In this document: positions 10,544-52,143 of the stretch, piece after piece
Position numbering within the stretch: the stretch's first letter is position 1
How the letters are laid out: each line of letters starts with the position of its first letter
Origin: a virus
Taxonomy: Duplodnaviria; Heunggongvirae; Uroviricota; Caudoviricetes
Virus record (IMG/VR): IMGVR_UViG_2703718819_000007
Strand: one strand, 5' to 3'
Length of the DNA: 64,000 bases
The notes under the pieces: generated by a model
Seen by the model: only the letters and a program-made list of their open reading frames with translations
The model's database searches: none
Told to the model about the DNA's origin: nothing
Position numbers and translations under genes: made by a program

Positions 10544-10575
10544 TTCACGATATTCCATTAATACCATTTCCTGAT

Positions 10576-10601
10576 GCCCGGCCATTGTGCCGGGTTTTTT
10601 T
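10576..10601 (+). terminator. Hairpin plus T-run immediately upstream of the giant ORF start
   Basis: cccggc-cattgt-gccggg followed by 7 T; implies the true start of the giant gene is the ATG at 10613. Confidence 0.55.
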
Positions 10602-10612
10602 ATGGAGTCTGT

Positions 10613-13600: not shown

Positions 13601-16600
13601 ATGCTGAACGGAACGGTCAGCGCGAAACGCCTCGCAGAATGGATGGAAGGCAGAATGCCCTCCCGTTACGCGGACACCTGGCAACTGTTACGCACTCTGC
13701 CACCCTCACAGATGGACAAGGCTTCTGCTTATCGGGTGGTATCGGGTGTGTATCAGGCGGCAGGAGGGAAGCGTTACGATCCGCCACAGAAACTTTATTC
13801 ACTGCGCAATAAGGACAATAAGGGGAGTAACCTCTTTTTCTCGGAAAGCAGGGATGAATTACTGGCAAAGGCGAAAGTCTGGTTTGCAGAGCAGGAGGAA
13901 AAATCACAGGCGAAAGGTGATGAAAAAACAGCACCGTCTCCGGATGACAAAATCCGCTTTGACGTTTACCGGAATACCCGCAGTGGCGATATTTTTATCG
14001 CTTACGGTAAAAACAAAATGCGGGTGAGAGGTGGCTTTAAGTCAGCCAGTGATGCGCGTAAGTACATTGATTTACATCGTGATGAGCTTGTTCGTCATGT
14101 GAAGGAGATGCGGGAGATTTCGCGTGAGGAGCAGCGCAACGCCACCAACCGCGACCGTACCGGACCAGAACGCCGCAAGGGGGATGTTTCACCGGAGCAG
14201 TTCAGTGATGCGTTTGGTTTTCGTGGTGTGCAGTTTGGTAATTATGTGGAAAGTCCGCGTCGTCAGGCTGATTTGAACCGGGCTTATGACTCGCTGCATG
14301 ACCTGGCTGACGTGCTGAATGTACCGACAAAAGCGCTTTCTCTGAACGGTCGTCTTGGGCTTGCTTTTGGTGCCCGTGGTAAGGGTAAGGCGGCGGCACA
14401 CTATGAGTCAGGTGAGGTGGCAATCAACCTGACAAAAGGTAACGGACCGGGTGCGCTGGCGCACGAATGGTTCCATTCTCTGGATAATTATTTTGGTCGT
14501 TATGACGTTTCCAGTGACGGGAAAATTACGTCAGGTGGCGACTTTATGACGGAAGCACAGCGTGTCAGGCGCATATTTAAAGACGGCAGGTATGTTGATG
14601 CTGAATATCCGGTACGTCAGGAGGTTTACGACGCTTTTAAAGGTGTGATTCAGGCCATTAAAAACAGTGACATGCCGCGTCGTTCAGCGCTTCTTGATGA
14701 GGTGCGCTCAAAACCGTACTGGTCAACGGATGTTGAAATGGCGGCACGTGCCTTTGAGCGTTATGTTCAGGATAAGGCGCGTATGGCTGGCGTGGAGAAT
14801 GATTATCTGGTCAATATCCGTAAGGCACCTGAGCACAACACAGATAACACCTACGCTTATCCGACGAATGCGGAACTGGATGGCGGTATTCGTGAGGCAT
14901 TCGATCACCTGTTCCGCACCCTGAAAACCCGTGAGACGGACAAGGGCGTTGCGTTTTATTCCCGTAAGGGCATGACCCGCACACCTGAAGGTAATCTCAT
15001 TTCGGATGTTAACCGTAGTGCGGAAGCCAAAGGCAGCCCGGTCCCGCAGGTTGAAGCGGTTGCCCGTGGCGTGATGAGCGGCATTAAGGACAGTGACCTG
15101 ACGGTCCGTGTGGTGAAGTCACAGAAAGAGGCTGAAGCGCTGGCGGGTGAATCGTTCGACGGTTACGGCAGGGTGCACGCATTCTATCGTCCGGATAAAC
15201 GAGAAATTGTCCTGGTGGCGGATAACATCCCTGACGGGCAGACCGTACGCGAGAAGTTGCGTCACGAGATTATCCACCATGCCATGGAGCATGTTGTCAC
15301 GCCAGCGGAATATCAGACGATTATCAAAACCGTGCTGAAAACCCGCGACAGTGATAACGCCACCATCCGTGAAGCCTGGCGTAAGGTTGATGCGTCCTAT
15401 GGTAAGGAATCACCGGAAGTACAGGCGGGTGAATTTCTGGCACATATGGCGGAGAAACAGCCGAATAAATTCGTGGCGGCATGGGAGCGTGTTGTTGCCC
15501 TGGTCAAAGGGGTACTGCGTCGTACGGGGTTACTGAAGCCGACGGAACTGAACGATATCAGACTTGTTCGCGAGACCATCCGTACGTTAGGCCAGCGTGT
15601 GCGGGAAGGTTACACGCCGCGTGAGGATGGCGTGGGCGCATCGTCTCAGTACTCCCGTAGTGGTAAGCCTGATCCGTTCAAAGTGCCGGAAGGTGAGGGT
15701 GAACGTTATCGCGATGACCTTGCCAGAATGATGAAATCTCTGCGTACCACAGATTTAACGGTAAACATCGGGCGTACGCCGCCGGTATTGCGTCACCTTG
15801 GTGCACCGGATTTGCCGCTGGTTATTTCCCGCGATACTGTGCGGAAGGCCACCAATGGTGTGAAACATGTGGTGCCGATGGATGTTATCGAGAGACTACC
15901 GGAACTGATGCACGATCCGGATGCAATTTACCGCTCAGCGACAGAAAGAAATGCGGTTGTGATGCTGCTTGATGCCGTGGATAAAAATGGTGATCCGGTA
16001 GTGTCTGCGGTGCATATGAAGGCAACCCAAAAACTTCTGGAAGTTAACCGTATTGCTTCTGTTTACGGAACGGAAAACGGGAAAAAACTGAAGAGTATGG
16101 AAACGGCTGGCTTAACATTATACAGGAGAGAAAAACTAAACCCTGATGGTTCTCTGTACAGAGGGCTCCAATTGCCCAAAGATGAGCACTCCCGTCAGGG
16201 TTCTGCGGATAAAATACTCTATCCTGAAGATATTCGCAAGGGGCCGTATTACTCCCGTACCAGCAGTCTGACACCGGAAGAGACAATTGCATCGCGTTTT
16301 GTGCGCCAGATGCAGGATAAATTCCAGGTGCTGAAAGCTGTTCAGGAGAATATCCGTAAAACTGGTGGAAAAATAGACGACAGTAACAACGCTTATATGG
16401 CGGAAGAACTCTTCCACGGGAAGGCGGAAAACGACCTGAACGTGATGAAGGAGCGCTACGTTCAGCCACTGGCTAAATTACTGGCGGACTACAAAATTGC
16501 GCAGGCCGATCTGGATGAGTACCTCTACGCCCGTCACGCGCCGGAACGTAACGCGCATATCGCGAAAATCAACCCGAAAATGCCGGACGGCGGTTCGGGG

Positions 16601-24012: not shown

Positions 24013-26439
24013 TTAAACCTTTTCGATCTGGACAAGATTGCTGTGCGACGGGTTTCCCTTTGCCAGCGGTGAAGGGCGGTGAGAGGTCAGAATATTGATA
24101 CTGCCGCCGTGATCGACCCGGTCACCAAACATATCCGCTTTAAGCCACGCACCTTGCCCGATGGCGGTAACGCCAGGCAGAATACGCGGAGTCACTTTTG
24201 CGGCAATCAGCATTTCTCCATTATTGTTAAATACCCGCACGGTATCGCCATGACGGATACCGCGTGCCTGAGCATCAATGGGGTTGATCCACACCTCTTG
24301 TGGGCAGGCCTGCTGTAACACATCAATATTGCCGTAGCTGGAGTGGGTACGCGCTTTGTAGTGGAAGCCCGTTAACTGCAGTGGATAGGTTTTCCGCAGG
24401 GGATCGTCCCAGCCATCAAAACCTGGGGTATACGCAGGAAGGGGATGAATAATTTCATCTTTTTTCAATTCCCAGGTATCTGCAATCTTCGCCAGTCGTT
24501 CAGAATAAATTTCGATTTTCCCCGAAGGTGTTTTCAACGGGTTTGCCTGTGGATCTTCACGGAATGCGCGGAAAGCGACGTAGTGTTCTTCCGGGCATTT
24601 TTTCTTAAAGATCCCGGTCGTTTTCATCTCCTCGTAGTCGGGCATCTCAGGGTTACGTTCCTTCGTTTTCGCATGGAGATATTTGATCCATTCATGCTGA
24701 CTGCGACCTTCAGTAAAGGTTTGATAAACGTCTGGTCCTAAGCGTTTGGCGACTTCACTCAGCATCCAGTAGATGGGTTTGCGTTCAAATTTTGCTGAGG
24801 TTGCGGGTTGGGCGAGGATCACATAGCCCATATTCCCTGCAGATTCATGAGAGATAAGGTCTTCTTGCTCTGTTGGCATCAGGTCGGGCAACAGGATATC
24901 GCAATACTTAGCCGAGGCCGTCATGAAGTGGTCAATGCCAACAATCATCTCGCACTTGCTGTCATCCTGAAGCACCTCATGGGTGTGATTGATGTCGCCA
25001 TGTTGATTGATCAATGTGTTACTGGCGTAGCACCATAAAAACTTGATGGGGACATCCAGTTTTTCTTTTCCACGAACACCATCACGGGTCGCGGTCATTT
25101 CCGTACCATGGTCGATGGCATCTGTCCATGTAAAGACGGAAATCTGCGTTTTAACAGGATTCTCAAGCATCGGGAACCATTCTACCCCCAGATCCCAGCT
25201 ACCTTCGCGTACACCTGAGTTGCCGCCGTTTATGCCGACGTTACCGGTGAGAACGGAAAGCATGGCAATAGCGCGGGACGTTTGCTCGCCGTTGGAATGT
25301 CGTTGTGGCCCCCAACCCTGACAAATATAAGCAGGTTTTGCTGAACCGATCTCTCGTGCCAACTGGATAATTTTTTCTGCCGGGATGCTGGTGATTTTTG
25401 CTGCCCATTCCGGCGTTTTAGCTATGCCGTCAGGCCCTTCGCCCAGAATATAGGCTTTATAATGCGCGTTACGTGGTGCGTTGGCGGGCAGCGTTTTTTC
25501 ATCGTAACCAACACAATATTTGTCGAGAAATGGCTGATCGACCATGTTTTCAGTAATCAGTACCCAGGCAATCGCACAGGCCAGTGCGCCATCGGTGCCA
25601 GGGCGAATGGGCAGCCATTCATCTTCACGCCCGGCAGCAGTGTCGTTATAACGTGGATCGATGACGATCATGCGTGCGTTTGAACGTTCGCGGGCTTGCT
25701 CGACGTAGTAAGTGACACCACCGCCGCTCATCCGCGTTTCTGCCGGGTTATTTCCGAACATAACGACCAGTTTCGTATTGGCGATATCATCCGGGCTGTT
25801 GCCATCATTGGCACCGAACATATAACTCATTGCGGCACTGATCTGTGCGGTACTGTAGCTGCCATAGCGACTGAGAAAACCACCGCAAGAGTTCATCAGA
25901 CGGTACGGGACGTTTGAGTTGGTGATGTTTCCGCCATCTACGCCTGTTCCGTACAGGACATGTACAGCCTCATTGCCGTAATCTTTCAGGATCCGCCGAA
26001 GATTATCACTGATGGTATCCAGGGCTTCGTCCCAACTTATCCGTTCAAATTTACCTTCACCGCGCTTGCCGACGCGCTTCATGGGATATTTCAACCTATC
26101 AGGATGATTCATCCGTCGGCGGATAGAGCGCCCGCGTAAACACGCTCGAACCTGATGGTTACCGTAGACGTCGTCACCTGTCGTATCAGACTCCACCCAG
26201 TACACGGTGTCATCTTTCACATGCAAACGTAACAGACAGCGGCTCCCGCAGTTAACGGTGCAGGAACTCCAGACCGCTTTCTCTTCTACCGGAGCCTCTG
26301 CCGCCCGGACCATTTGGGAAAATGGCAGAGTGAAAGCACTGCTTGCCAGCGCAAGACTGCCAAGTGCGGAGGTTTTCATCAGACTTCTACGGCTGATTTC
26401 AGCCTTCATGAGCGCCTCTGTGGTATGGATTTTCATCAT
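24013..26439 (-). CDS. ynfF: DMSO-reductase-family molybdopterin oxidoreductase catalytic subunit YnfF (Tat signal)
   Basis: RRSLMKTSALGSLALA twin-arginine signal, CxxCxxxC Fe-S motif, 808 aa. Confidence 0.85.
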   Translation of the reverse strand: MMKIHTTEALMKAEISRRSLMKTSALGSLALASSAFTLPFSQMVRAAEAPVEEKAVWSSCTVNCGSRCLLRLHVKDDTVYWVESDTTGDDVYGNHQVRACLRGRSIRRRMNHPDRLKYPMKRVGKRGEGKFERISWDEALDTISDNLRRILKDYGNEAVHVLYGTGVDGGNITNSNVPYRLMNSCGGFLSRYGSYSTAQISAAMSYMFGANDGNSPDDIANTKLVVMFGNNPAETRMSGGGVTYYVEQARERSNARMIVIDPRYNDTAAGREDEWLPIRPGTDGALACAIAWVLITENMVDQPFLDKYCVGYDEKTLPANAPRNAHYKAYILGEGPDGIAKTPEWAAKITSIPAEKIIQLAREIGSAKPAYICQGWGPQRHSNGEQTSRAIAMLSVLTGNVGINGGNSGVREGSWDLGVEWFPMLENPVKTQISVFTWTDAIDHGTEMTATRDGVRGKEKLDVPIKFLWCYASNTLINQHGDINHTHEVLQDDSKCEMIVGIDHFMTASAKYCDILLPDLMPTEQEDLISHESAGNMGYVILAQPATSAKFERKPIYWMLSEVAKRLGPDVYQTFTEGRSQHEWIKYLHAKTKERNPEMPDYEEMKTTGIFKKKCPEEHYVAFRAFREDPQANPLKTPSGKIEIYSERLAKIADTWELKKDEIIHPLPAYTPGFDGWDDPLRKTYPLQLTGFHYKARTHSSYGNIDVLQQACPQEVWINPIDAQARGIRHGDTVRVFNNNGEMLIAAKVTPRILPGVTAIGQGAWLKADMFGDRVDHGGSINILTSHRPSPLAKGNPSHSNLVQIEKV

Positions 26440-26496: not shown

Positions 26497-27523
26497 TTAT
26501 ATTTTTTCGATCTCGACCAGATTAGTGTGCTGCGGGTTTCCCTTCGCCAGTGGTGAAGGGCGCAGAGTGGTTAGCGTATTCACACAGCCGCCATGGTCGA
26601 TTTTATCGCCAGACATATTGGCCTCGTGCCAGGCTCCCTGGCCCATAGCGCTAACTCCAGGGAGAATACGTGGTGTTACTTTGGCTGGTAGCCGAACTTC
26701 GCCACGATGGTTAAACACCCGCACCATATCGCCGTTGGCAATCCCACGTTTCTGCGCATCTATAGGGTTGATCCACACCTCCTGACGGCAGGCAGCCTTC
26801 AGGAGATCAATATTGCCGTAGGTCGAGTGAGTACGGGATTTGTAATGGAAACCAAACAGTTGCAGTGGGAAGGTTCTACGTTCAGGGGAGTCCCAGCCTT
26901 CAAAGGTAGAGGCATAAACTGGCAGTGGGCTTATCACTTCATCTTTTTCCAGTTCCCAGGTACGGGCAATTTCCGCCAGCTTGCTGGAATAAATTTCAAT
27001 CTTACCGGAAGGTGTTTTAAGTGGATTTGCCTCGGGGTCGTCACGAAATGCTTTGTAGGCGACAAAATGACCATTGGGATCTTTACGCTTATAGATACCC
27101 ATTTTTTTCAGTTCGTCGTAAGACGGTAACGCCGGATCTTTGGCAAGCATTTTGGCGTACAGATGTTGTAACCATTGTTCCTGCGTGCGACCTTCAGTGA
27201 ACTTTTGATAGACGTCAGGTCCAAGACGTTTCGCGACTTCACTCAGGATCCAGTAAATCGGTTTGCGTTCGAATTTTTCGCTGGTGACAGGCTGGAGGAA
27301 AATGAGATATCCCATGTTACCGGCGTAGTCGTTAGGAATAATATCTTCCTGCTCAACGGTCATCAGGTCTGGCAGCAGAATGTCGGCATATTTTGCCGAT
27401 GAGGTCATAAAGTTTTCGATGACCACAATCATTTCGCATTTCGATTCGTCCTGCAGAATTTCATGCGTTTTGTTGATGTCAGAATGCTGATTAACGAGGG
27501 TATTTCCCGCGTAGTTCCAGATG
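26497..27523 (-). pseudogene. ynfE: ynfE 3' (C-terminal) fragment, separated from its 5' part by the 6.7 kb insertion
   Basis: Translation ...ESIWNYAGNTLVNQHSDINKTHEILQDESKCEM... to ...VEIEKI paralogous to the YnfF C-terminus; upstream part of the ORF reads into element DNA. Confidence 0.8.
27513..27523. repeat. Left copy of 11-bp direct repeat agttccagatg (target duplication or att core)
   Basis: Identical 11-mer at 34224-34234; joining the flanks restores an in-frame ynfE (KFIWNYAGN). Confidence 0.75.
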
Positions 27524-27588
27524 GACTCCACTGTCAGACGGATGGACGGACTTGAAGTAGTTGACTCAACGCTACTTAAGGTCCTGAT

Positions 27589-29211
27589 ATGACTGACATT
27601 AACCATGACAATACTGTATATCCATCCAGTTCTTTCTCTGGGTCTCCCTATCTGTATCAGCAAGTCTACACCTCAAGTCCTGACACAAGGCTGACACAAA
27701 TCAACCTACTCGGCGTGGCTTGCTCGCTACTTGCTAAGCCTCAGTTAGTCCGTAGAGCCAATGGTCGATATACTATCCGCTTCAGACTCAAGGGACAGAC
27801 CATCCCGTTTCTTTCAGTATCGACCCGAAGCACAGACAGGAGAGTAGCCACAATGCGTCAGAGAGAGCTTGCAGCCACAGCTAAGTCCTTCATGTTGGAT
27901 AGGCCTGATGTCTCGCTACAGGAGCTTACAGAGCACCTCCGGTCTATGGCTGAGCAGTTCCTGACAGACGCTAGTGACGATTACTGGAATGGACTTGAGG
28001 TCGCTACTTTGGTGGACGAGAAGTCCAACCTGAAGGAGCTAGCCGCTACGCAAGCCTTAAGTCTGGACCAGCAGAAGGGCATAAGGTTAGCGCTTGAAGT
28101 CCTGACCGCAGCACAGCAGAGGGTAGACACTGGTGATACCTCTGGTCTGATTAAGCTGATTGATGATAATAACCATACTGATTACTCAACTATAGGCGAC
28201 TCTACGTCAATTCTGAAGAATGAGCAGGGGGATAGACCAGCAGTTTTCACACAGGAGCCCCAACCTGAGGTCACTATCGCTGACCAACCAGCTATCTGTA
28301 GTTTTTCTGAGCTAGTGTCCTCGCTGCTGGCTGAGAAGGTCCAGACCCTGAAGTCATCCAGCTACAAGGACCTGTCGTCCTCACTGAATACCGTCTCTCG
28401 GTTCTTACCTGAAGACATGGACCTGATGTCCCGCTCTGAGTGGCTGGCTGTCAGGGACGCTATGCTGGCTTCTGAGGTGAGACCGTCGACGATTAACAAG
28501 CTGCTGACTAAGGCGAAGATGTGTCTTGACTACGGTCTGATGAATGGGCAACTTGAGGGCCGCAACCCTATTGAACGGATGAAGCTGACCAAGGATATCG
28601 ACTCCAAGCGCAGAGCGTTCACAGACGAGGAGCTGGAGAGACTTCTGGTCCGTGTTGAGGCTGAGTATCAGTTCACACGACACACGGCTCACACGACCTC
28701 TGAGGCCCGTAGATGGGCGTCTCTGGTGTCTGTAGTTACTGGCGCTCGGTCTGCTGAGGTCTGCCACCTGACTAAACGTGACATTGTAACCTTAGACAAT
28801 GGACTGGTCTGTATCGACATCAACGAAGATGGGGACGGTAAGTCTGTGAAGAACAAGCATTCAGTCCGACTTGTGCCGTTGACCGATGGGGCCTGTGGTC
28901 TTGACCTGAAGTCCTTCCTCGAATGGGTAGACATGCAGCCTGACGAGGGTCCTCTCTTCGGGATGACTCCAAGCGCATACTCTAGCTGGTTTAACTCTAG
29001 GGTCCTGACTGAGGCCCTAGGAGACTCTCAGGATGTCTCTCTCCACAGTCTGAGGCATTGGCTGGCGACCCGCATGAAAGAGCGTGGAGTCAATCTGGTG
29101 GATGCTCAGGGCATCTTAGGCCATAGCAGTCAGTCCATTACGTATGACCTGTACGGGAAAGGACATGCAGTCCAGAGACTGGCTGAGGTGCTGAAGACAG
29201 CTTTACTTTAA
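27589..29211 (+). CDS. Tyrosine recombinase/phage integrase (start uncertain: ATG 27589, GTG 27715 or ATG 27853)
   Basis: C-terminal HSLRHWLAT...GHSSQSITYDLYG catalytic motifs (H-x-x-R, Y); N-terminal RYTIRFRLKGQ arm-binding-like motif. Confidence 0.85.
   Translation: MTDINHDNTVYPSSSFSGSPYLYQQVYTSSPDTRLTQINLLGVACSLLAKPQLVRRANGRYTIRFRLKGQTIPFLSVSTRSTDRRVATMRQRELAATAKSFMLDRPDVSLQELTEHLRSMAEQFLTDASDDYWNGLEVATLVDEKSNLKELAATQALSLDQQKGIRLALEVLTAAQQRVDTGDTSGLIKLIDDNNHTDYSTIGDSTSILKNEQGDRPAVFTQEPQPEVTIADQPAICSFSELVSSLLAEKVQTLKSSSYKDLSSSLNTVSRFLPEDMDLMSRSEWLAVRDAMLASEVRPSTINKLLTKAKMCLDYGLMNGQLEGRNPIERMKLTKDIDSKRRAFTDEELERLLVRVEAEYQFTRHTAHTTSEARRWASLVSVVTGARSAEVCHLTKRDIVTLDNGLVCIDINEDGDGKSVKNKHSVRLVPLTDGACGLDLKSFLEWVDMQPDEGPLFGMTPSAYSSWFNSRVLTEALGDSQDVSLHSLRHWLATRMKERGVNLVDAQGILGHSSQSITYDLYGKGHAVQRLAEVLKTALL
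27681..27700. repeat. Left arm-type repeats tgacacaagg-c-tgacacaaa
   Basis: Same 20-mer recurs at the right end (34136-34155) in direct orientation. Confidence 0.6.
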
Positions 29212-29218
29212 GTAGGAA

Positions 29219-29270
29219 GACCCAAGGTGGAGACCATATACGGCTTGATGGTTGAGACCTTGGGTCACTG
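29219..29270 (+). terminator. Long-stem hairpin after integrase stop; possible terminator or processing site
   Basis: gacccaagg ... ccttgggtc 9-bp inverted repeat. Confidence 0.35.
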
Positions 29271-29399
29271 AAGTCTGACTGAAGTTAGGGAGGGTGATAA
29301 TAATCATAATCCCTCCTGACTATAGGCCCACTGGTTCGCCTTCGGCTGTCCGACTCTAAGTCTGTCTGTGGTCTTATTTAAACTGCGTCCTAAACTCCA

Positions 29400-29650
29400 G
29401 TCCCTCCAAATTCCTATGGTCTCCTCTTGACATTCCTGTTTAACTGTGAGTCGCCTCTGGTCTCTCTTTATATATACTTCCTTAATTCCTGAGGCGTCTT
29501 TAGTCCTTGACATTCTGTCCAACCTGTGAGTCACATCCGGTCCTCCCTCTTTATATTTACTTCCTTAATTCCTAGGGTCGCCTTAATCCTTGACATCCAG
29601 TCCAGCCTGTGAGTCACATCCTGTCGCGCTACTGTATGCATCACCAGTGG
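29400..29650. repeat. Three tandem ~80-83 bp repeat units each containing TTGACAT and palindrome TGTGAGTCACA; candidate operator or iteron array
   Basis: TTGACA at 29427, 29507, 29590; cttccttaattcct and ctgtgagtcac recur with the same period. Confidence 0.65.
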
Positions 29651-29652
29651 TG

Positions 29653-29675
29653 GACTTGATTATCACTATAGGGGA
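29653..29675 (+). promoter_or_regulatory. T7-type single-subunit phage-RNAP promoter motif (tatcactatagggga)
   Basis: 12/12 match to T7 core TCACTATAGGGA (-8 to +4); 36 nt upstream of an RBS-preceded ORF. Confidence 0.6.
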
Positions 29676-29705
29676 ACCAACTAATTCAACGACAGGAGAT
29701 ACTCT

Positions 29706-30074
29706 ATGGCACGACCAATCGCAACTCACGACAACACGTTCACCAAAGCCTACTTGCAGCAGCACTGCGGGGACCTGCTGTCATTCGATGGTCAGGGTGA
29801 CTTGAGTGGCTGGCTGGATGATGTCCTTACTGGTGCTGGTCGCCTGAGCGAATCAATGGCAAGCAATACCAAGCCTGTCAGCCCATACTTGATTCTGACC
29901 CAACTACTAACGCACGACACATTAACTGTAAGCGCTGTGCAGGAGTCCCTGAGCCGTAAGCGTGTTGCCTTGGGTGAACCTATGGTTTCAACTCGCTACG
30001 CTCGCTACGTCTATTCTACGGTGGTCAGCGCCAGTAAATCCGTCAAGTACCACGCCAGTAAAGCTGGTTCATGA
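29706..30074 (+). CDS. Hypothetical protein (122 aa), first gene downstream of a T7-type promoter
   Basis: AGGAGA RBS 6 nt upstream of ATG. Confidence 0.6.
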   Translation: MARPIATHDNTFTKAYLQQHCGDLLSFDGQGDLSGWLDDVLTGAGRLSESMASNTKPVSPYLILTQLLTHDTLTVSAVQESLSRKRVALGEPMVSTRYARYVYSTVVSASKSVKYHASKAGS

Positions 30075-30095
30075 TAAAGGACCCTAAACTATCAC
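30073..30095 (+). promoter_or_regulatory. Second T7-type promoter motif (tatcactatagggaaga)
   Basis: Shares exact 13-mer tatcactataggg with 29660-29672. Confidence 0.6.
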
Positions 30096-30504
30096 TATAG
30101 GGAAGACCAACCTTGCCTCTGAGTCTGATGCGTCAGAACATGCGAGCATCTGGTCAACCGACATTAAGTATCTCTCCTAAGTAATCAAGGCCCGTGACCG
30201 CCTCTGTCAGACCTCCTGTATGACCTCCAGCTCGTTAGCGTTCTTTAGTCGTCTCGGTTAGTAGCTCGTCTACTCACTACATTGGCTTAAGTCTATCACC
30301 GCTCACCATCTGGAAGTCCTTACAGCTCGTCCTGACATGCGGTCGCACCTTTATACGTACATGGAGAACATGGTCACTCCAGACCGTCAACATTTAACCA
30401 TTCACTTTCGTTAAGCACTTTCTGATGGGTCCGTTTAGGATGCGTCTGAATGGTGCGGACTCCATGTGGAGACAGAAAGTGCTTTACCAAAGGAGCATCT
30501 TTGT

Positions 30505-31020
30505 ATGAATACCGAATTACCAGTAACTAACCGCCAGTTCTTAATCATCCTGCTGACCAATGCAGAGTCCAGTGTCGATTGCTGTCGCTATAACTTAGAC
30601 CTGCTGAAGTTATCCCGATGGTATGCCCAGGCGGAAGACTGGGACTATGAGAAAATCCGGGAGATGTACGCGGAGCCTATCCAGTCATACCTCCAGACAC
30701 ACACCGAGGAAGAGCTGAAGCGTGGCCTGCAGGACATCTTCTATTTCAACAATCCTTACACCTGTGAGGGTGACTCAGAAGAGATGGATTGGATAGCGTC
30801 ACGCTCTGATGCCGACTTGAAGCACATCTCTAACGCGATGATGCAGGTGGAGAGCAAATGGTCTCGCCGACTTCAGGTCCTAACTGAGGATTACGAAAAC
30901 GGCACCTTTGATAAGCTGGTCCCACCTGATACCGAACGTCTTCAGGCGAAAGCTGACCAAGAACAGCGCTTCAAGTCCTTTGCCGAAGCTCTGGCGGGAG
31001 GTGCCTCTTATGACTTCTGA
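30505..31020 (+). CDS. Hypothetical acidic protein (~171 aa)
   Basis: AAGGAG RBS 10 nt upstream of ATG 30505. Confidence 0.55.
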   Translation: MNTELPVTNRQFLIILLTNAESSVDCCRYNLDLLKLSRWYAQAEDWDYEKIREMYAEPIQSYLQTHTEEELKRGLQDIFYFNNPYTCEGDSEEMDWIASRSDADLKHISNAMMQVESKWSRRLQVLTEDYENGTFDKLVPPDTERLQAKADQEQRFKSFAEALAGGASYDF

Positions 31021-31504
31021 CAATAAGCAGGAATACACCATTCATATCTTCGGTCAGGACATCACCAGTCAGGACGGATTGTTTCGACTCGATGAAATTC
31101 GCCGGGTCGGCATTCAGATTGGCAAAGTAGAAGACACCGAGTCGACACAGTACAAGCGTTTTGCTCAGACCAAAGTTGGAAAGCTACTGAGGAATAGGCA
31201 GAAAATCCGCCTTATCCGAATGGGTGAACTCGGGTCTACCGTCCTTGCTGACCCCGCCGCTACTGTAGAGTTTGGTCGCTGGCTGGACTTTGAGTACGGA
31301 CTGGCAGTCTCTGAAGCCTTCGTGTCTATGACCTCCAGCGCCACCGTGCAGTCTGCTGTAGCGTCTGCTGAGGACATCAAGCCGGAGACCAAGGAATTCA
31401 TCCAGCGTCATGGCACAGGCCTCTACATCGCCGGACGTGAAGTCTCACAGGCTGAGTATTCAGACTATCAAGCTGTGACCGCTGGTCGCTGTGAGTGGAG
31501 GTAA
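31009..31504 (+). CDS. Hypothetical protein (~165 aa)
   Basis: ATG overlapping the upstream stop (translational coupling). Confidence 0.5.
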
Positions 31505-31510
31505 GTAATC

Positions 31511-31684
31511 ATGGCTATGATTGACCCACGCACACCTGAGGGCCGCATGACTCTCCGTTACCGTGGCTACCGGACTGAAGTCCTCCTCAGAGAGCTTGGT
31601 CTAGACCCGGAAGATGAGACCCGCCAGCACCAATCCCGAGACGAGCTGATAGCGCAACTGGTCGCTATGAAACTGTCTGCCTAA
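31511..31684 (+). CDS. Small hypothetical protein (57 aa)
   Basis: GGAGG RBS upstream of ATG; not in ORF track because <60 aa. Confidence 0.45.
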   Translation: MAMIDPRTPEGRMTLRYRGYRTEVLLRELGLDPEDETRQHQSRDELIAQLVAMKLSA

Positions 31685-31780
31685 TTTTAAAACCTTTTGA
31701 GATGACCGATGCGGGGAGACCCGTAGGCGCTACTGCGTCTGCGATACCGATAGTCTCAACTCTCAAGAGGAGAATTACCT

Positions 31781-32272
31781 ATGATGTTCAACAACAACAA
31801 CTGGAAGCTGTCAGTCACCGACATCAACCTTTATGAAAACACTGTGAGTCTGGACGGTCAGCCCTATCCGCTGTCGCTCGCTATCAAGACCCTCATTCCG
31901 GGCTACCTGTCAGGCCTGCCGTCTACCAGCCGCGAGGCAATGGAGTTACTGGAAGCTCTGGCTGAAGCTGGCGTAGCTATTGGCAACTTCTTCAGTAATG
32001 ACCTGATGACCGCCTATGGTCGCCGCCAGCTTAACAAACGAGCTGAGGCTGAGCGTATCGCTAAAGAGCTGGCATCTCAGAAAGAGCGTATGCGTGAAGA
32101 GAACATGACCGATGCAGAGTGGCAGAAAGAGCTACAGCGCCGCGAACAAGTCAAAGCTGAACGCCGGACCTATGGTGAGAACCTCCGCAGTGCAACCCAT
32201 TCCGCTGGTCGCTCCCGTGCCGCTATTGTCGCTGACCTTGAGTCAGGCGGTAACTGGCTGGACAGCTTATAA
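31781..32272 (+). CDS. Hypothetical protein with charged coiled-coil C-terminal half (163 aa); scaffold-like by position
   Basis: AGAGGAGA RBS; K/E/R-rich helical region; immediately precedes the 328-aa ORF. Confidence 0.5.
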   Translation: MMFNNNNWKLSVTDINLYENTVSLDGQPYPLSLAIKTLIPGYLSGLPSTSREAMELLEALAEAGVAIGNFFSNDLMTAYGRRQLNKRAEAERIAKELASQKERMREENMTDAEWQKELQRREQVKAERRTYGENLRSATHSAGRSRAAIVADLESGGNWLDSL

Positions 32273-32356
32273 GACACACAGTCCCTGACCCGATGTTAGG
32301 GACTCCTCAGTTTTGAGGACTCACAGTATTTAAACTAATTTAGGAGATTGATTATT

Positions 32357-33343
32357 ATGACGATTAAAGACGCTTTCCAGTTTGGCATTGAGCCAGTACG
32401 CATCACCGATACCGACAACATTCAGGTCAATGAAGGTCTGCCGACTAACGCTGACCCGCAGGTCTACGCCCTCCAGTTAGCTAAGACGGTTAAGGCTATG
32501 CTGAACGGTGTACTTAAGGACGCTCAAGAGAACATCCCGTTCCCTGTAGAAGTCCTGCCGACCCGTAACAGCTTACCGACCCCAATCATTGCCCACACTC
32601 TGGCTGACCGCTCTGTGGTCGTTCCTGTCCGTGGTGGCAAGCGACCTGAAGTCGTGACCATTCCGTCTGGACAAGAAATCGTGGTCGAACCAATCGAGCA
32701 GGCTATTCTCATCTCTGAGCAGACCACTCTCTGGGACGCCAAGTCATCCACCGGATTCACTCAGGGCACACTTCAGCAGGACGCTATGAACATCTGTGAG
32801 AATGTGGTCCGTACCATCAACGCTCACATGGTCGACGTTCTGGAATCCTCTAAGCTGCTGAAGACCGTAGAGCTTCCTGTCCTGACTGGTAGCCTGACCG
32901 CTAAGGCAGACGCTATCATGGACGCTCTGTATGAGAACACAGAGCCTTCTTTCGGTTCTGAGGTGTCTAACTACGGTATTATCGCTCATGAGAGCCAACT
33001 GAAAGCACTGTCCCGTCTGGCTGCTAAGCAAGGCTTCTCCGGTGAAGACGCTATCGTCGATATGCTGGGAACAGACATCGCCTACTACAACGGTGAAGAC
33101 AAGGGTGTATTCATGCTGGCTAAACGCTTCACGGCTCTGAGCTTCGGTTGCTTCCGTCACGATGGCGAGAATATTACGGTCGTCCTTTCACGTGATGGCG
33201 ACTCTCAGTCCCACGACTTGGAAATCCTCGGTAAAGTGTACGTTGTCGCTGAAGCTGCTACGACCATCAAGATGGGCACTGGCTCAGCTACTGCCGTCCT
33301 GCCTGTAGTCAAACGCCTGAAGTTCACCAAGACCGAAGCGTAA
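32357..33343 (+). CDS. Hypothetical 328-aa protein, largest non-integrase gene of the element; candidate structural (capsid-like) protein by context only
   Basis: AGGAGA RBS 8 nt upstream; leader tttaaactaatttaggagattgattattATG resembles the T7 gene-10 leader. Confidence 0.5.
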   Translation: MTIKDAFQFGIEPVRITDTDNIQVNEGLPTNADPQVYALQLAKTVKAMLNGVLKDAQENIPFPVEVLPTRNSLPTPIIAHTLADRSVVVPVRGGKRPEVVTIPSGQEIVVEPIEQAILISEQTTLWDAKSSTGFTQGTLQQDAMNICENVVRTINAHMVDVLESSKLLKTVELPVLTGSLTAKADAIMDALYENTEPSFGSEVSNYGIIAHESQLKALSRLAAKQGFSGEDAIVDMLGTDIAYYNGEDKGVFMLAKRFTALSFGCFRHDGENITVVLSRDGDSQSHDLEILGKVYVVAEAATTIKMGTGSATAVLPVVKRLKFTKTEA

Positions 33344-33348
33344 GACCA

Positions 33349-33588
33349 ATGGGTAAGAGCATTAGTAAAGGCTTCAGGTCCATCGCCAAGGGCCTGACAG
33401 GTGGTGGTGGGACTCAAGGTGGGGCTTCGGTCCCGCCTCCTGTAGCTCCTCCTGTAGCTCCTCCAGATGACGCTCAGCAAGCTGTAGTCGATACCCAAGG
33501 TCAGGAGACCGAGGGAGGTAAGACCATGAGCAGAGGTAAGTCTGGACTGAATATCAGCAGGACTTCAGGTGGTGGCCTGTCACTGTGA
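33349..33588 (+). CDS. Small Gly/Pro-rich protein (79 aa)
   Basis: ORF 5 nt after previous stop. Confidence 0.4.
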   Translation: MGKSISKGFRSIAKGLTGGGGTQGGASVPPPVAPPVAPPDDAQQAVVDTQGQETEGGKTMSRGKSGLNISRTSGGGLSL

Positions 33589-33826
33589 TTAAGACATCTA
33601 TACAGCCTGTGGAGGGTGGACGATATCAAGCAACAATCTGGATGACACGCAGAGTCTATAAGCGGCTATGCTGGTCACTGGCTGAAGCTGAACAGTGGGT
33701 GAGACGTAAAGTGCCTACCGTTCAATCGTTCCAATCATCATGATAACTATGGTCTGGACCAATGGTCTGGACCTTTGTTTTGTACTAGTTATCTAGTGCA
33801 GTAGTACAATAGACGAAGGAGGCTTT

Positions 33827-33982
33827 ATGTCCATGACTTCCGCAGACCTAAGGTCCCTCCTGACTCTGGTCTATAAACTCGTGCTCCTCTCTGTGGGTCT
33901 CTATATGGTCCTCTCCGGTCGACTCGGTGTGAATGTATTCGACACTCTGTCTAAGGCTGTGGGTGGGCTTCTGGGGGCTTAG
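33827..33982 (+). CDS. Small hydrophobic (single transmembrane) protein, 51 aa; holin-like by size only
   Basis: Strong AAGGAGG RBS; LVYKLVLLSVGLYMVLSG hydrophobic core. Confidence 0.4.
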   Translation: MSMTSADLRSLLTLVYKLVLLSVGLYMVLSGRLGVNVFDTLSKAVGGLLGA

Positions 33983-34135
33983 GTTTGGACTCACAGTGGG
34001 ACCGATGGTTTCTGACAGAAAAATGTGAATGACCATCTAATACATTAAGCCAGCAGACTTCTCCCCCATAGCCCCGCCTCAAGTCCAGACCGAGGCCACC
34101 GGGGTCCTGACCAGCCGTCTAGACATCCCGTCTAA

Positions 34136-34168
34136 TGACACAAGGCTGACACAAAGCCTGACACAAAG
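34136..34168. repeat. Right arm-type repeats: three copies of tgacacaa(g/a)g
   Basis: Direct repeats at 34136, 34147, 34159 matching the left-end 20-mer. Confidence 0.6.
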
Positions 34169-34223
34169 TCCTTGACTCAATGCAGGACCTCAGACCTACT
34201 AAGGGTCCGCTTCAAGTCCTTGA

Positions 34224-34234
34224 AGTTCCAGATG
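34224..34234. repeat. Right copy of 11-bp direct repeat agttccagatg
   Basis: Identical to 27513-27523. Confidence 0.75.
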
Positions 34235-35634
34235 AACTTAATGGGCACATCCAGTTTATCTTTGCCGCGGACGCCGTCGCGGATTGCCGTCATTTGCGGA
34301 CCATGATCGATAGCATCTGTCCAGCTGAAGCAGGAGATTGACATTTTGACCGGATTATCCAGCACCGGCAGGCGTTCTATGGTAATGGTATAGGTCGATT
34401 CACGCGCGCCACTATTTCCGCCGCTGATGCCGACATTGCCCGTCAAAATAGGTAACATAGCAATAGCGCGTGCAGTCAGTTCGCCGTTTGCCTGGCGTTG
34501 CGGCCCCCAGCCCTGGCAGATATAAGCGGGTTTTGCTGTGCCAATTTCACGCGCCAGTTTGATGATACGGTCTACCGGGATACCGGTAATTTGCGAAGCC
34601 CACTGCGGCGTTTTCGCTGTGTTATCATCACCTTCACCAAGAATATAGGCTTTATAGTGACTATTTTTGGGTGCATCTGCGGGTAAGGTTTTTTCGTCAT
34701 AGCCGACGCAGTATTTATCGAGAAAAGGTTGATCAACGAGATTTTCGTTAATCAATACCCAGGCAATACCCGCAACCAGCGCGGCATCGGTGCCCGGGCG
34801 AATAGGGAGCCATTCATCTTCACGACCAGCAGCCGTATCGGTATATCGCGGATCGATAGCAATCATTTTGGCGTTCGATTTCTCGCGCGCTTTTTCAAGA
34901 AGATAAGTGATGCCACCGCCGCTCATGCGGGTTTCTGCCGGGTTGTTACCAAACATCACGACCAGCTTGCTGTTTTCAATATCCGTGGTGCTGTTGCCAT
35001 CATTACTGCCGTAGGTGTAGGGCATGGCACAGGAAATTTGCGCGGTGCTGTAGGAGCCATACTGATTGAGTGAACCGCCGTAGCAGTTCATCAGGCGTTT
35101 GACCGCCGAGGCTGATGGCGAAGAGCGGGTCATATTGCCGCCAACGATCCCCGAAGAGTACTGAATATATACAGCCTCATTGCCATATTGTTCGACGGTT
35201 TTCTTCAGGCTACTGGCGATAGTATCCAGGGCTTCATCCCAGCTAATCCGTTCGAATTTGCCTTCGCCGCGTTTGCCCACGCGTTTCATTGGGTAATTCA
35301 AGCGATCGGGATGATTAATACGCCGACGGATGGATCGACCACGCAAACAGGCGCGTACTTGATGATTGCCATACTCGTCGCTGCCGGTGTTGTCAGTTTC
35401 CACCCAGGTGACTTCATTATCTTTAACATGTAGACGAAGTGCACAGCGGCTACCACAGTTGACGGAACAGGCACCCCAGATCACTTTTTCGCTGGCCTGT
35501 TGTACCGCTGCCGCTGCACTGCGCAGGGTGAACGGTAAAGAAAAACCGCCTGCAGCCAGCGCCAGAGAACCTATCGCGGTTGATTTAACGAGTGTTCTGC
35601 GGCTGATGCCCACCATTCGGTCATTTTTGGACAT
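34224..35634 (-). pseudogene. ynfE: ynfE 5' (N-terminal) fragment with Tat signal, interrupted by the element
   Basis: MSKNDRMVGISRRTLVKSTAIGSLALAAGG...; reading frame runs into element sequence and stops at 34177. Confidence 0.85.
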
Positions 35635-42633: not shown

Positions 42634-45105
42634 TTAAGAATCAGCCTGACTCGGGATCAGTTTTTGCCAGATAACTGAAACGTATTTTGCCTGGTAACGG
42701 GCGTCATCAAGTGCATTATGGCGCTCACCTTCGAATGGAATAGCCGTTCTGGCATCGAAGTCTATGGCTTTCCCCAGCTCAACGATTGTGCGTACATCGC
42801 GATCGTTGTAGTAACGCCACGGGCAGGGGATCCCCTGCCGTTCATATGAACGGCGCAAAATCGTGTTGTCGAAGTTGGCTCCATTTCCCCAAACCTGAAC
42901 AAAAAATTCACCGGAGTTTTCGTCGATAAATTCCCGCAATTGTAACAGTGCATCATCTAACGGGATTTCATCGGTCATAATGGCAGATTGCGCTTCGCGT
43001 GATTGCTTAAGCCACCATTTAATGGTGTCCCGATCAATGACTCCGCCAGCAGTTTCCAGATCGATAGTCTTACTAAATTCCGGTCCCATATCTCCGGTTT
43101 GCGGATCGAAAAATATTGCACCTATTGAGATGATCGGGGCATCAGGATTTTTTCCCATGGTTTCAAGGTCGATCATTAGATGGTCACACGTCCTGCTGGT
43201 GGATGTGATTTCGTGATGACCGTTCACCTTAATTGGGTGATCTGCCGTCTCGCCAGTTTCATTATCGCTATTGTGATGCTGATTGCCGCCAGTGTTCTCC
43301 TTGTGTGGATGTTCAGCGCCTTCCATTTCCTCCGGATCATCTTCCTGAACTTCAACCTGATACTCTTCATCGAATGTTTCTTGGTATGTTGCGTCGCCCA
43401 TCACCGCGCCACAATCAGGGCAGTTGCCGCCGCCGGTCTGACCGCAGGCGGTGCAGACCTTTTCCACTTCCTGTTGCGCCACTGGTTCAGGCTGTTTCGT
43501 TTCTGGCTCGTTTTGTAACGCATTTGGACTGTTTTGTTCCGCTTTTTGGTAGTTCCGTTCCGATTCATGCTGGTTCTGGTTCACAGAATCGCGGGTCTGG
43601 ATCCCCTTAACCCATTTCGGATCATTCGGGTCACTAATCCCTTCAACAAATTCACCACGTGATGCAGCAAGCAACTTATCGGCGTCAGGCTGGCTGATAT
43701 TGGCTGCCTGCATAATTTTGTTTACTTCGTCAGCGGTAACTTTTATCGGCTCTGGTTGTTCTGAATCTTCAGCGGTATCTACATTTTGCGGTAAGCCCGT
43801 GTATGTGCCATTTTTTCGGGCAAAATATTCTTCTTTTGTGATTTCAGTGGCGCCAGCAGCCAGTGCCTTATCCAGACCAGAAAGTTTGTTTGCGCGACCG
43901 TATTTTTCTCCGTCCTTATCTGCGAAGAGGAAATAGAACGGCCCCTCACGCTCTACAGATGGTTCAGCTTCCGGCGCGGTTTCATTTTTTGGGATATCAG
44001 ATACCTCAGTTTCCACTGCATCAGTTTGTGTTTCTGATGACTGGAGAACATCAACAGTGCCCAGGTCTGTTTCTTCATTCTCAAACACGCCCTTTGTCGT
44101 CAGGTATTCGCAGATATATTTGTTCAGTGCTACGGGATCTTTGTGAATGTCGATCGGACGCTCACGGACAAGGCCAAAAATAGTTTGGCGGTCGTAGCGA
44201 AGGGCATCAGGCTGTTTGCGCATTGATGCCGAGATACGCTTCCAGTCTTCGCGGTCGTTGTCGATAACTTCTTTTTTTGCCCAGCGATGGATGCTGCCGT
44301 CAATGTTTCCGGCATCCACATCACCAGGCCAGAGAGCGTAGGCCAGTTCGTCATCCAGTGTTTTCCATGTCTGCTTGTATTCGCGATGAATGGCAGCAAT
44401 GACCGGGCTGATTTTTCCTGTTGAATTTTCAGTGTACTGTTGATTGGCTCTGGCGCGGGCGAGATCAACAACAGACGTGTATTTTCCGGTTTCCTTGCGT
44501 TCACCTTCGCGACGTTTTTTCCAGATGCGCATCTCTGCCTGAATTTCGGGCCATTTAGCACCAGGAATACATTTATGCTTAACCCACCCAATGGCGTGCA
44601 ACTTAAGCTCCGGATACATGGCGTTAACTTCTGGCATTTTCATCAACGCTTCAACGATATGTCCGTCGAATGTTGCCATGTCTTCCTGCAACAATTCCTG
44701 TGCGCTAATAACCATATCAACGGTGATGTTTTCACATGTGTCGAACTTAACCATGACAGCGTTCTGTACTTCAGGGGCCAGCTTGTCAAAAGTGACGTTC
44801 ATCGGATCGGATTCAGTCTCAACCGGGACAAAAGAAGCAGACTCCTCATCCCAGCGGTTTTCCTGCATATATTCAGCATCCCATGAATCGAGGGCAGGGC
44901 GGGGTATGCCAGGTTTATCCTCGCAGACAATAAATTTATAAGCGCAGTCCTGAGCAGCCGGATAATGTTCCAGGAATTGCCAGTGAAATTTTGCTCGAGC
45001 ACGGCGTTCGTCGCCAGCTTCAATGGCTGTGGCTACAGCCACAGCGCCTTCTTCCCTTGTTGCCAGTTCGTCAGGAATAGCGGCGCAAATAAAGACTTTA
45101 CTCAT
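42634..45105 (-). CDS. Prophage exonuclease (823 aa) with C-terminal DEDDh 3'-5' exonuclease-like domain
   Basis: C-terminal DHLMIDLETMG...GNGANFD...HNALDDARYQ motifs. Confidence 0.65.
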   Translation of the reverse strand: MSKVFICAAIPDELATREEGAVAVATAIEAGDERRARAKFHWQFLEHYPAAQDCAYKFIVCEDKPGIPRPALDSWDAEYMQENRWDEESASFVPVETESDPMNVTFDKLAPEVQNAVMVKFDTCENITVDMVISAQELLQEDMATFDGHIVEALMKMPEVNAMYPELKLHAIGWVKHKCIPGAKWPEIQAEMRIWKKRREGERKETGKYTSVVDLARARANQQYTENSTGKISPVIAAIHREYKQTWKTLDDELAYALWPGDVDAGNIDGSIHRWAKKEVIDNDREDWKRISASMRKQPDALRYDRQTIFGLVRERPIDIHKDPVALNKYICEYLTTKGVFENEETDLGTVDVLQSSETQTDAVETEVSDIPKNETAPEAEPSVEREGPFYFLFADKDGEKYGRANKLSGLDKALAAGATEITKEEYFARKNGTYTGLPQNVDTAEDSEQPEPIKVTADEVNKIMQAANISQPDADKLLAASRGEFVEGISDPNDPKWVKGIQTRDSVNQNQHESERNYQKAEQNSPNALQNEPETKQPEPVAQQEVEKVCTACGQTGGGNCPDCGAVMGDATYQETFDEEYQVEVQEDDPEEMEGAEHPHKENTGGNQHHNSDNETGETADHPIKVNGHHEITSTSRTCDHLMIDLETMGKNPDAPIISIGAIFFDPQTGDMGPEFSKTIDLETAGGVIDRDTIKWWLKQSREAQSAIMTDEIPLDDALLQLREFIDENSGEFFVQVWGNGANFDNTILRRSYERQGIPCPWRYYNDRDVRTIVELGKAIDFDARTAIPFEGERHNALDDARYQAKYVSVIWQKLIPSQADS

Positions 45106-51864: not shown

Positions 51865-52143
51865 ATGGCACGCAACGTAAAATATTACAATTCTGATAAT
51901 TCGCCCGTTCTTGTCTGCACGCACGAGCGGTATTCTCACGCATTCAAGTCTGAATGGTTCCAACACCCTCCATGCACTGAAGAGCAGGCTGAATGGATAA
52001 TTCAGTGTTACCGCAGGCGCGGATACGAGGTTAAGAAAGCCCTTAGCCTCGACTACCGTCACTGGATAATCTCAGTCAGATTGCCTTACTCCGAACGCCC
52101 ACCACGTGCGTCCCGCACTTTCCAGCAACGGATCTGGAGGTAA
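51865..52143 (+). CDS. Hypothetical protein (92 aa)
   Basis: ORF. Confidence 0.35.
   Translation: MARNVKYYNSDNSPVLVCTHERYSHAFKSEWFQHPPCTEEQAEWIIQCYRRRGYEVKKALSLDYRHWIISVRLPYSERPPRASRTFQQRIWR

Follow-up and report, generated by a model that had tools for sequence, protein, structure and literature searches.

A 6.7-kb island in ynfE of Escherichia coli encodes a predicted HK97-fold capsid protein and is a candidate satellite of T7-like phages

The DNA analyzed here is a stretch of 64,000 nucleotides from IMG/VR (record IMGVR_UViG_2703718819_000007; hereafter the window). It proved to be E. coli chromosome, the genes ynfA to ynfH being 98.9-99.6% identical to those of strain K-12 except that ynfE is interrupted. 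Inserted in ynfE, a selenate-reductase paralogue, is an island of 6,696 bp (27528-34223, delimited by the break in the K-12 alignment) in which every gene lies on the + strand. The junctions have 15 bp in common, an imperfect direct repeat (AGTTCCAGATG[G/A]ACT in ynfE) whose left copy, the attL core, lies at 27513-27527 and whose right copy, the attR core, at 34224-34238. A sequence-only reading of the window had proposed a scaffold and capsid pair, encoded by an open reading frame (ORF) for 163 residues, ORF163 (31781-32272, + strand), and one for 328 residues, ORF328 (32357-33343, + strand). Both ORFs exist as that reading had them. We consider it likely that ORF328 is the major capsid protein and ORF163 the assembly partner of a 6.7-kb integrative satellite of virulent Kayfunavirus (T7-like, K1F-type) phages.

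ORF328 has 328 residues when translated from its ATG and would have 331 from an upstream TTG, which sits too near the Shine-Dalgarno sequence. It matched nothing in Pfam or PHROGs, nor in the PDB sequences by phmmer and hmmsearch, and tblastn returned no match in 50,697 phage genomes. A word-indexed protein search with ORF328 found only relatives at least 70% identical, from Escherichia, Shigella, Citrobacter and Rouxiella. An exhaustive HMMER profile search led to the identification of 64 proteins, with about three dozen near-full-length distant homologues that are mostly 311-527 residues long and 19-41% identical. Ten distant homologues likewise matched no Pfam or PHROG capsid family, and some carry C-terminal Big_2 or He_PIG immunoglobulin (Ig) domains, of a kind often found in virion surface proteins. 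Given an alignment of 13 close homologues, AlphaFold modelled ORF328 with a predicted local distance difference test score (pLDDT) of 40; with an alignment of 39 sequences the pLDDT was 81.5 and the predicted template modelling score 0.76. The latter model has the N-arm, E-loop, P domain with spine helix and A domain of the HK97 fold, together with a long N-terminal helix. Foldseek gave 239 matches to it in the PDB at E ≤ 1e-3, and all of those listed were HK97-fold capsid proteins or encapsulins, including proteins of the T7-like phages HRP29, PhiM1 and Kp9. A structure search of BFVD gave the same picture. On this model ORF328 is an HK97-fold major capsid protein, predicted to form an icosahedral shell around DNA. 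Predicted structure and fold search, which had been put forward as the refuting test, thus support the capsid proposal. The sequence-only reading had seen no primary-sequence similarity to T7 gp10; hhalign of the ORF328 family against gp10 of the Kayfunavirus phage IMM-002, our putative helper genome, gave a probability of 0.1%.

The gene directly upstream encodes a divergent DUF6971 protein. As the sequence-only reading had noticed, the C-terminal half of ORF163 is charged and helical, with 46% charged, 75% helix-favouring and 3% Gly+Pro residues between positions 77 and 135. In every related island examined, a DUF6971-type gene for 127-165 residues lies directly upstream of the capsid homologue. 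These upstream genes align with ORF163 over an N-terminal domain of about 90 residues followed by a charged stretch rich in Glu, Arg, Lys and Ala. Homologues 83-88% identical to ORF163 carry PF22318; the protein of island L008 matches Pfam DUF6971 at 1.4e-33, and distant members match as well. The family alignment also matched chain A of PDB 5EUR at 4.8e-33, a score driven by the L008 member (L008:9485-9895). This chain is the solved crystal structure of the DUF6971 family and was deposited as 'Uncharacterized protein'; the protein is possibly SF216 of Shigella flexneri. In position and composition ORF163 is scaffold-like, being small, encoded upstream of the capsid gene and helical and charged in its C-terminal part. 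It shows no homology to a known scaffold; we infer a scaffolding role from position, composition, the conserved pairing with the capsid gene and the absence of a protease gene. The ratios of nonsynonymous to synonymous substitution rates (dN/dS) are 0.16-0.27 for ORF163 and 0.06-0.22 for ORF328. Over both, the range of 0.06-0.27 corresponds to purifying selection and indicates that these are real genes.

Between the two genes lies the leader tttaaactaatttaGGAGAttgattattATG, together with the hairpin and GACTCAC motif that the earlier reading had placed ahead of ORF328. We found a conserved leader hairpin with a 10-bp stem (32280-32304, + strand), a second hairpin of 5 bp (32305-32318, + strand) leading into GACTCAC at 32318-32324, and a Shine-Dalgarno sequence with its spacer, AGGAGATTGATTATT (32343-32356, + strand), where GGAGA..ATTAT..ATG is invariant across variants. 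The predicted folding energy of the 93-nt leader is -25.4 kcal/mol, with shuffled sequences at -15.9 +/- 2.9 (z = -3.34; none of 200 shuffles folds as well). Ten island variants retain the first hairpin and the GGAGATTGATTATTATG ribosome-binding site. They comprise seven distinct hairpin sequences, in which 61 of 63 pair-cells are standard pairs; one change is compensatory and several affect one side of the stem only. The second hairpin with GACTCAC is an insertion that only four of the ten variants have. The likeness to the T7 gene-10 leader stood in part: the AT-rich TAAAC element and GGAGAT are indeed present, but the resemblance is generic in this island. The leaders of islands L004, L029 and L030 read AGGAGATATACACCATG, far closer to the T7 gene-10 leader quoted in the sequence-only reading, AGGAGATATACATATG, and that of L028, AGGAGATACACCACTATG, is one base longer than AGGAGATATACACCATG.

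GACTCAC itself was considered as a T7-type promoter and rejected, since the 7-mer is not enriched in the window (7 occurrences against 6.45 expected) and the inserted stretch is absent from most variants. The 9-mer GACTCACAG, which contains it, occurs six times in the island and not once in the other 57 kb of the window; IMM-002 has it once. Its copies lie at 29446, 29526, 29609 and 31844 on the - strand and at 32318 and 33988 on the + strand, the last (33988-33996) after the final gene. Three of them are inside tandem repeats of about 80 bp and two flank ORF163 as an inverted pair. The 9-mer has CTCACAGT in common with the left terminus of T7-group genomes.

The island is linked to T7-like phages by putative promoters, one gene and one short stretch of DNA. 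The sequence ATCACTATAGGG occurs at two sites upstream of island genes. These are P1 (29650-29675, + strand; ggacttgattatCACTATAGGGGaacc), which is conserved in L001 and L017, and P2 (30083-30108, + strand; cctaaactatCACTATAGGGaagacc), which matches the Kayfunavirus consensus and whose closest counterpart in IMM-002 is phiOR. In IMM-002, AACTATCACTATAGG is found at seven intergenic + strand sites, including those upstream of genes 9, 10, 17 and 19.5; no site of this type occurs in the rest of the window outside the island. The stretch CTAAACTATCACTATAGGGA (30084-30103) matches the IMM-002 promoters through +1, on the coding strand and upstream of genes. By this comparison P1 and P2 match promoters of T7-group (Kayfunavirus) RNA polymerases, and transcripts would start at the Gs of ...CACTATAGGG, at about 29670 and 30099. 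Immediately after the capsid gene comes ORF79 (33349-33588, + strand), which matches phrog_1320 at 1.8e-11, shares 42.5% identity with an unannotated ORF that immediately precedes the portal gene of IMM-002, and reaches 17.6 bits with Pfam VirionAssem_T7, where the cut-off is 25. Profile and genomic position together identify it as a predicted homologue of T7 gp7.3, a virion/adsorption protein. Finally, a hairpin upstream of P1, GGAGGGTGATAATAATCATAATCCCTCC (29289-29316, + strand), is identical to the Kayfunavirus sequence between genes 19 and 19.5. The match of 28-32 nt at 97-100% identity (29289-29324) is the only DNA match of the island in 50,697 phage records, and the 28-nt hairpin recurs unchanged in four Escherichia phages of about 40 kb, of which three are assigned to Kayfunavirus (L010:1501-1528; L009:444-475). 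The links to a Kayfunavirus helper that we found are thus all at the level of sequence. Together with the integrase and att repeats they strengthen the earlier idea of an element that exploits a T7-like helper, far more than the leader resemblance does. The wording that it redirects helper capsid assembly is better replaced by saying that it supplies its own capsid protein, because ORF328 has no similarity to the helper gp10.

Three further observations concern these sequences. The hairpin lies in IMM-002 in the orientation, relative to the phage genes, opposite to that in phiYIO1-1 and Esher7. The 12-mer GCCTCTGAGTCT (30115-30126, 10 nt after P2), situated in a conserved non-coding stretch, is identical to the final bases of the terminal repeat of IMM-002. 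In the same way CTATCTGTATC (27648-27658) is identical to the end of that repeat with the adjoining junction.

ORF328 could also be the shell, and ORF163 the cargo, of an encapsulin-like nanocompartment carried on a mobile island that does not parasitize phages. We regard this as very unlikely. Encapsulin systems pair a shell gene with an enzymatic cargo that bears a targeting peptide and have no phage context, whereas here T7-group promoters stand ahead of the genes, a gp7.3 homologue adjoins them and Pfam finds no enzyme domain in ORF163. The Ig-domain extensions of some homologues are typical of virion proteins, and a shell protein of 328 residues with a long N-terminal helix likewise speaks against an encapsulin.

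The species-representative genomes that proved to carry islands related to that of the window belong to Shigella, Leclercia, Buttiauxella, Citrobacter, Enterobacter, Kluyvera, Shimwellia and Rouxiella. Distant capsid homologues sit in similar islands of further hosts; L006, a distant member, comes from a metagenome and lies on a contig rich in GC. DUF6971 homologues come from Salmonella, Klebsiella, Enterobacter, Citrobacter, Shigella, Serratia, Yersinia and others. All islands examined have an integrase, variable small genes, the DUF6971 gene and the capsid gene, and only some have gp7.3. The family has integrases of two types, and its members occupy one of two attachment sites, either ynfE or the 3' end of tRNA-Gly(CCC). 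Across hosts, integrase types and cargo the length stays at 6.3-6.7 kb (in the window and in L008, L015, L020, L022, L025, L028, L030 and L006), save where an insertion sequence (IS) element has inserted. Such a length is about one sixth of a T7-like genome of 39.5-40.5 kb.

The promoters differ between islands. L008 has a T7-type promoter, aattacgactCACTATAGGGAGA; L007 has taattcctacCACTATAGGGAGA three times and one variant; in L004 and L028 the sequence is aaggaaggtaCACTATAGGGAGA. Repeated 12-mers in L006 contain AAAAACCCTCA and seem to resemble promoters of Pseudomonas phage gh-1. In L018 (Leclercia), L019 (Buttiauxella) and L025 (Citrobacter), tandem promoters of two classes, ..ATACCCTCACTATAGGGA.. 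then ..CTAAACTATCACTATAGGG.., stand in this order 26 nt apart (L018:5469-5520 and 6021-6075; L019:5439-5490; L025:5486-5540 and 6056-6110), and these islands may be responsive to helpers of two lineages. That promoter class varies together with island lineage is, in our view, the best argument for functional promoters, each island apparently being tuned to its local helper or helpers.

The family comparison also bears on two other readings. T7-type promoters and a gp7.3 gene in a chromosome might be what is left of a decayed T7-like prophage. This we think the least probable explanation of all, as none of the ORFs is disrupted and selection on them is purifying, islands of the same compact layout and length turn up in several genera, at two attachment sites and with unbroken repeats, and the capsid protein has no counterpart in the phage genomes searched. 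A more serious competitor, although still improbable in our judgement, is an interference or defence island that is not transferred. The phage polymerase would induce a capsid-like protein and its partner, which would co-assemble with or titrate the portal, scaffold and core of the helper, so that helper assembly is aborted and the population protected, and the island would spread by other means. Control by phage promoters would make an ideal infection sensor, and neither a packaging signal nor a circular form was found. Known satellites disturb helper assembly too, as with TcaP of PLE, an element resembling phage-inducible chromosomal islands (PMC10945586). However, a pure defence island has no reason to keep to 6.3-6.7 kb despite different cargo, integrases and hosts, and no PADLOC model matches this one. 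A complete, well-folded and strongly conserved capsid protein, with Ig-domain variants and the adsorption protein gp7.3, points rather to real particles, and the family is spread across many genera.

The satellite reading therefore remains the one that we favour. In att repeats, integrase and an incomplete set of virion genes the island has, as far as its sequence indicates, the general hallmarks of a satellite. We propose that it would lie silent in ynfE, where its integrase, att repeats and insertion are observed. Upon helper infection, the single-subunit RNA polymerase of the phage would read P1 and P2, whose sequences match the consensus, and rightward transcription would cover the small genes, then ORF57, ORF163 and ORF328, and lastly the gp7.3 homologue. 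Owing to the conserved hairpin and a strong ribosome-binding site, the capsid protein would be highly expressed in the manner of gene 10. ORF163 would scaffold ORF328 into a shell smaller than the T=7 (triangulation number) head of the helper, nucleated on the helper portal. The integrase would excise the island, and the helper replisome would copy it, just as T7 replicates DNA that lies downstream of its own promoters. Helper terminase would package the island, and helper tails with the island's gp7.3 would finish the particle, so that the satellite would spread at the helper's cost. In this scheme packaging, transfer and the scaffold role are what we infer.

The constant length would fit either one copy per small head or six copies per helper-sized head, and we favour the small head because the family always keeps a capsid gene. 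The six-copy option belongs to a variant of the satellite reading, also unlikely and slightly more so than an interference island, in which ORF163 is a packaging-specificity factor resembling a small terminase, a portal adaptor or a decoration protein and in which a concatemer of about six copies may fill helper-sized heads. Six times 6.3-6.7 kb is 38-40 kb, close to helper genomes of 39.5-40.5 kb. Small satellites are indeed packaged as concatemers, as in the case of VEIMEs, integrative mobile elements encapsidated in virions (PMC9618062), and PICMIs, minimalist chromosomal islands inducible by phage (PMC10803314). The folded N-terminal domain of about 90 residues in ORF163 is moreover unlike purely helical scaffolds. 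On the other hand, concatemer-packaged satellites have no capsid gene (PMC9618062), whereas the present family always has one, and hhalign found no similarity between the ORF163 family and the helper small terminase. A gene right before the capsid gene whose product has a charged helical C-terminal half is also the classical arrangement of a scaffold.

Several points weigh against a helper-dependent satellite with its own scaffold and capsid. Particles, excision, replication and transfer are not among the observations, and the support comes from sequence. ORF163 itself falls below the Pfam DUF6971 threshold and gives no match. No scaffold PHROG or other scaffold family matches it, and hhalign found no similarity between its family and gp9 of IMM-002. 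The capsid family, as stated, has no sequence relationship to gp10 of this phage by hhalign. With ORF328 unlike gp10 and ORF163 unlike gp9, our scheme presupposes that they are compatible with the portal, core and terminase of the helper. A packaging signal was not identified, and a search for the helper concatemer junction gave only matches of 11-13 nt, near chance; the two terminal-repeat matches described above are near chance as well (rough p 0.01-0.06 each). Logan and metagenome contigs show no terminal overlap or circular junction, and hence no circular or excised form. Lastly, the integrase gene, whose product would have to excise the island, lies upstream of the phage promoters.

In its gene order the island resembles T7 genes 9 and 10. 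Both have a scaffold-like gene followed by the capsid gene, a leader hairpin with a strong Shine-Dalgarno sequence, transcription by a phage polymerase (predicted here) and no protease gene. They differ in that the island proteins have no sequence similarity to gp9 and gp10, and ORF163, with its DUF6971 domain at the N terminus, is only half as large as gp9. A T7 origin (a phage promoter) and a concatemer junction were reportedly enough for replication and packaging by T7 (Chung & Hinkle, 1990), which would account for how the island could manage without genes of its own for replication and packaging. That was an artificial construct in T7 heads, and a concatemer junction was not identified in the island.

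The closest known systems are the cf-PICIs, phage-inducible chromosomal islands that form capsids, which are larger and exploit temperate phages. Like our island they have their own capsid protein, and they encode all proteins needed to make and fill capsids, taking only tails from the helper (e.g. EcCI2; bioRxiv 10.1101/2022.09.08.507074; PDB 9gyi). The island, in contrast, has in its 6.7 kb only the capsid protein, the DUF6971 protein and gp7.3, and the rest would come from a virulent T7-like helper. Pfam and PHROGs found none of the cf-PICI set of portal, head-tail connectors and small terminase among the ten island ORFs, and induction apparently proceeds through phage-polymerase promoters. 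PICMIs and the marine VEIMEs (PMC10803314, PMC9618062), which come next, are likewise very small integrative satellites with minimal gene content, and PICMIs use virulent phages; yet they have no capsid gene and travel as concatemers in helper-sized heads, whereas the present family always has a capsid gene and its partner. P4 (Sid/Psu), Staphylococcus aureus pathogenicity islands (CpmAB, Ccm) and PLE (TcaP) reshape the capsid protein of the helper, unlike the island, whose shell protein is its own and unrelated in sequence to helper gp10. The 'Twilight' mini HK97 elements (Aguilar et al., bioRxiv 10.1101/2025.06.18.659913) share a size of about 7 kb, an integrase, an HK97-fold protein and the lack of portal, terminase and tail. 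By their description they are set apart, being metagenomic, encoding RepA and a helicase and being discussed as relatives of encapsulins, with no link to a T7-like helper or promoter reported.

More tentatively, and with distinctly less confidence than for the island itself, we suggest that all these islands form a widespread unannotated family of minimal, 6.3-6.7-kb satellites of virulent T7-like phages in Enterobacterales. They would sense the RNA polymerase of the helper, some of them with two specificities, and have no replication or packaging genes of their own. With their own capsid protein and DUF6971 scaffold, and with borrowed portal, core and tail, they may make a DNA-filled HK97 capsid of T=3 or less, smaller than any other known. 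Full-text literature searches, in which subscription journals are thinly covered, turned up neither a satellite of T7-like phages nor a paper that mentions DUF6971, so a prior description is possible.

T7-like phages are the standard example of virulent phages, and phage therapy and biotechnology rely on them heavily. If the reading holds, the islands would be a new satellite family with a new class of helper and a new, simple induction logic, in which phage-polymerase promoters take the place of repressor and anti-repressor and specificity can be read from the DNA. The ORF163-ORF328 module occurs in 310 of 5,426 complete E. coli genomes (about 6%), in all cases on the chromosome and annotated 'hypothetical protein'; these strains, and related bacteria, would then host a parasite that annotation renders as two hypothetical proteins. 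A genome of 6.7 kb that encodes its own HK97 capsid protein would put to the test how small tailed-phage capsids can be, and would bear on the debate about small HK97 shells and encapsulins. DUF6971, whose solved structure 5EUR is unexplained, would gain a testable function; we are aware of no earlier link between this family and phage capsid assembly. In practice the islands could also make therapeutic K1F-type phages less productive and move chromosomal DNA from one genus to another.

Of the 5,426 genomes, 28 contain at least 80% of the island. Strains 47-1826 and VG12A2 are examples of E. coli that carry an island. IMG/VR matches to it are contigs (uncultivated viral genomes, UViGs) of 18-73 kb, none of them island-sized. 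In metagenomes, contigs of 6.2-6.9 kb consist of the island with about 55 bp of flank on each side; these are assembly bubbles, which indicates that occupied and empty sites coexist in the samples. In the window the halves of ynfE, one of two paralogous selenate/DMSO-type reductase genes, span 26497-27527 and 34224-35634, and the neighbouring ynfF (24013-26439) is uninterrupted. The att core GTAGTTCCAGATG also flanks the Shigella island L017, as it does in the window. An exact 20-bp repeat found by a repeat search of the island, TGACACAAGGCTGACACAAA, lies at 27681-27700 and 34136-34155 (both + strand) and flanks the Kluyvera island L028 as well; it is a candidate arm-type site of the integrase. 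Many members sit at the 3' end of tRNA-Gly(CCC), with the core TCCCTTC[A/G]CCCGCTCCA (L008:5197-5270; L065:46-119; ends of L048 and L053), and their integrase is about 30% identical to that of the window. Shigella flexneri SFBU1023 (CP182556.1) has two islands, L017 and L023, at different sites, and the integrase of one is interrupted, aligning as two pieces about 1.2 kb apart.

The island has ten ORFs, among which Pfam and PHROGs detected no portal, terminase, tail or replication gene. The same databases detected no hallmark genes of PICIs (alpA/primase-replicase), P4-like elements (psu, sid, delta, alpha) or PLEs (core genes), and PADLOC found no known defence system. A scan for sigma-70 promoters gave no more sites than in shuffled sequence. 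The first gene encodes a tyrosine integrase of 540 residues (27589-29211, + strand; Pfam Phage_integrase 1.7e-14, phrog_1 4.7e-43). Downstream, the repeat search showed three tandem repeats of about 80 bp (29380-29625, + strand), each with CTTGACAT and CTGTGAGTC, which may be sites for a regulator or an origin. After P1 follows ORF122 (29706-30074, + strand), which matches phrog_23123 at 9.8e-9 and gives weak matches to phage hypothetical proteins. A non-coding stretch after P2 (30109-30465, + strand) is conserved across variants with different downstream genes and has no Rfam family; a role as replication origin or packaging site (ori/pac) would be speculation.

ORF184 (30466-31020, + strand) is conserved in L017. 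It overlaps the next ORF (30908-31504) by about 110 nt in a different frame, a layout kept in Shigella. The latter gene probably starts at the ATG at 31010 and encodes 164 residues (ORF164, 31010-31504, + strand; 198 residues if from a TTG start). ORF164 has no Pfam match of its own in the window copy; proteins about 61% identical to it occupy the same slot in L022, L028-L030 and L004, and in L001, L008 and L006 a KilA-N domain protein stands among the small genes in its place. In strain 47-1826 a single KilA-N gene for 252 residues replaces the ORF184/ORF164 stretch. ORF57 (31511-31684, + strand) encodes a small protein and lies just upstream of the DUF6971-capsid pair in 13 of 17 tabulated loci. 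Beyond ORF79 we found ORF52 (33585-33743, + strand), conserved in L001 and L018, and, after the structural genes, a terminator-like hairpin with a 10-bp stem and a T-run (33751-33783, + strand). The last gene, ORF51 (33827-33982, + strand), is conserved in L001, L017, L018, L028 and L004 and encodes a small hydrophobic protein, probably a membrane protein.

Outside the island the window holds other phage-derived DNA. To the left of the ynf operon is prophage material, comprising a 'large polyvalent protein' of 2,806 residues with LPD38, LPD5, LPD1 and MuF_C domains (10574-18994) next to a phage tail-tip gene (3968-5236). On the right of the island a second prophage region (about 42600-64000) includes genes for a lambda-type large terminase, gpA (60697-62799), for a DUF968/HNH protein (52106-53194) and for a protein of 823 residues whose exoribonuclease domain is Rv2179c-like (42634-45105, - strand).

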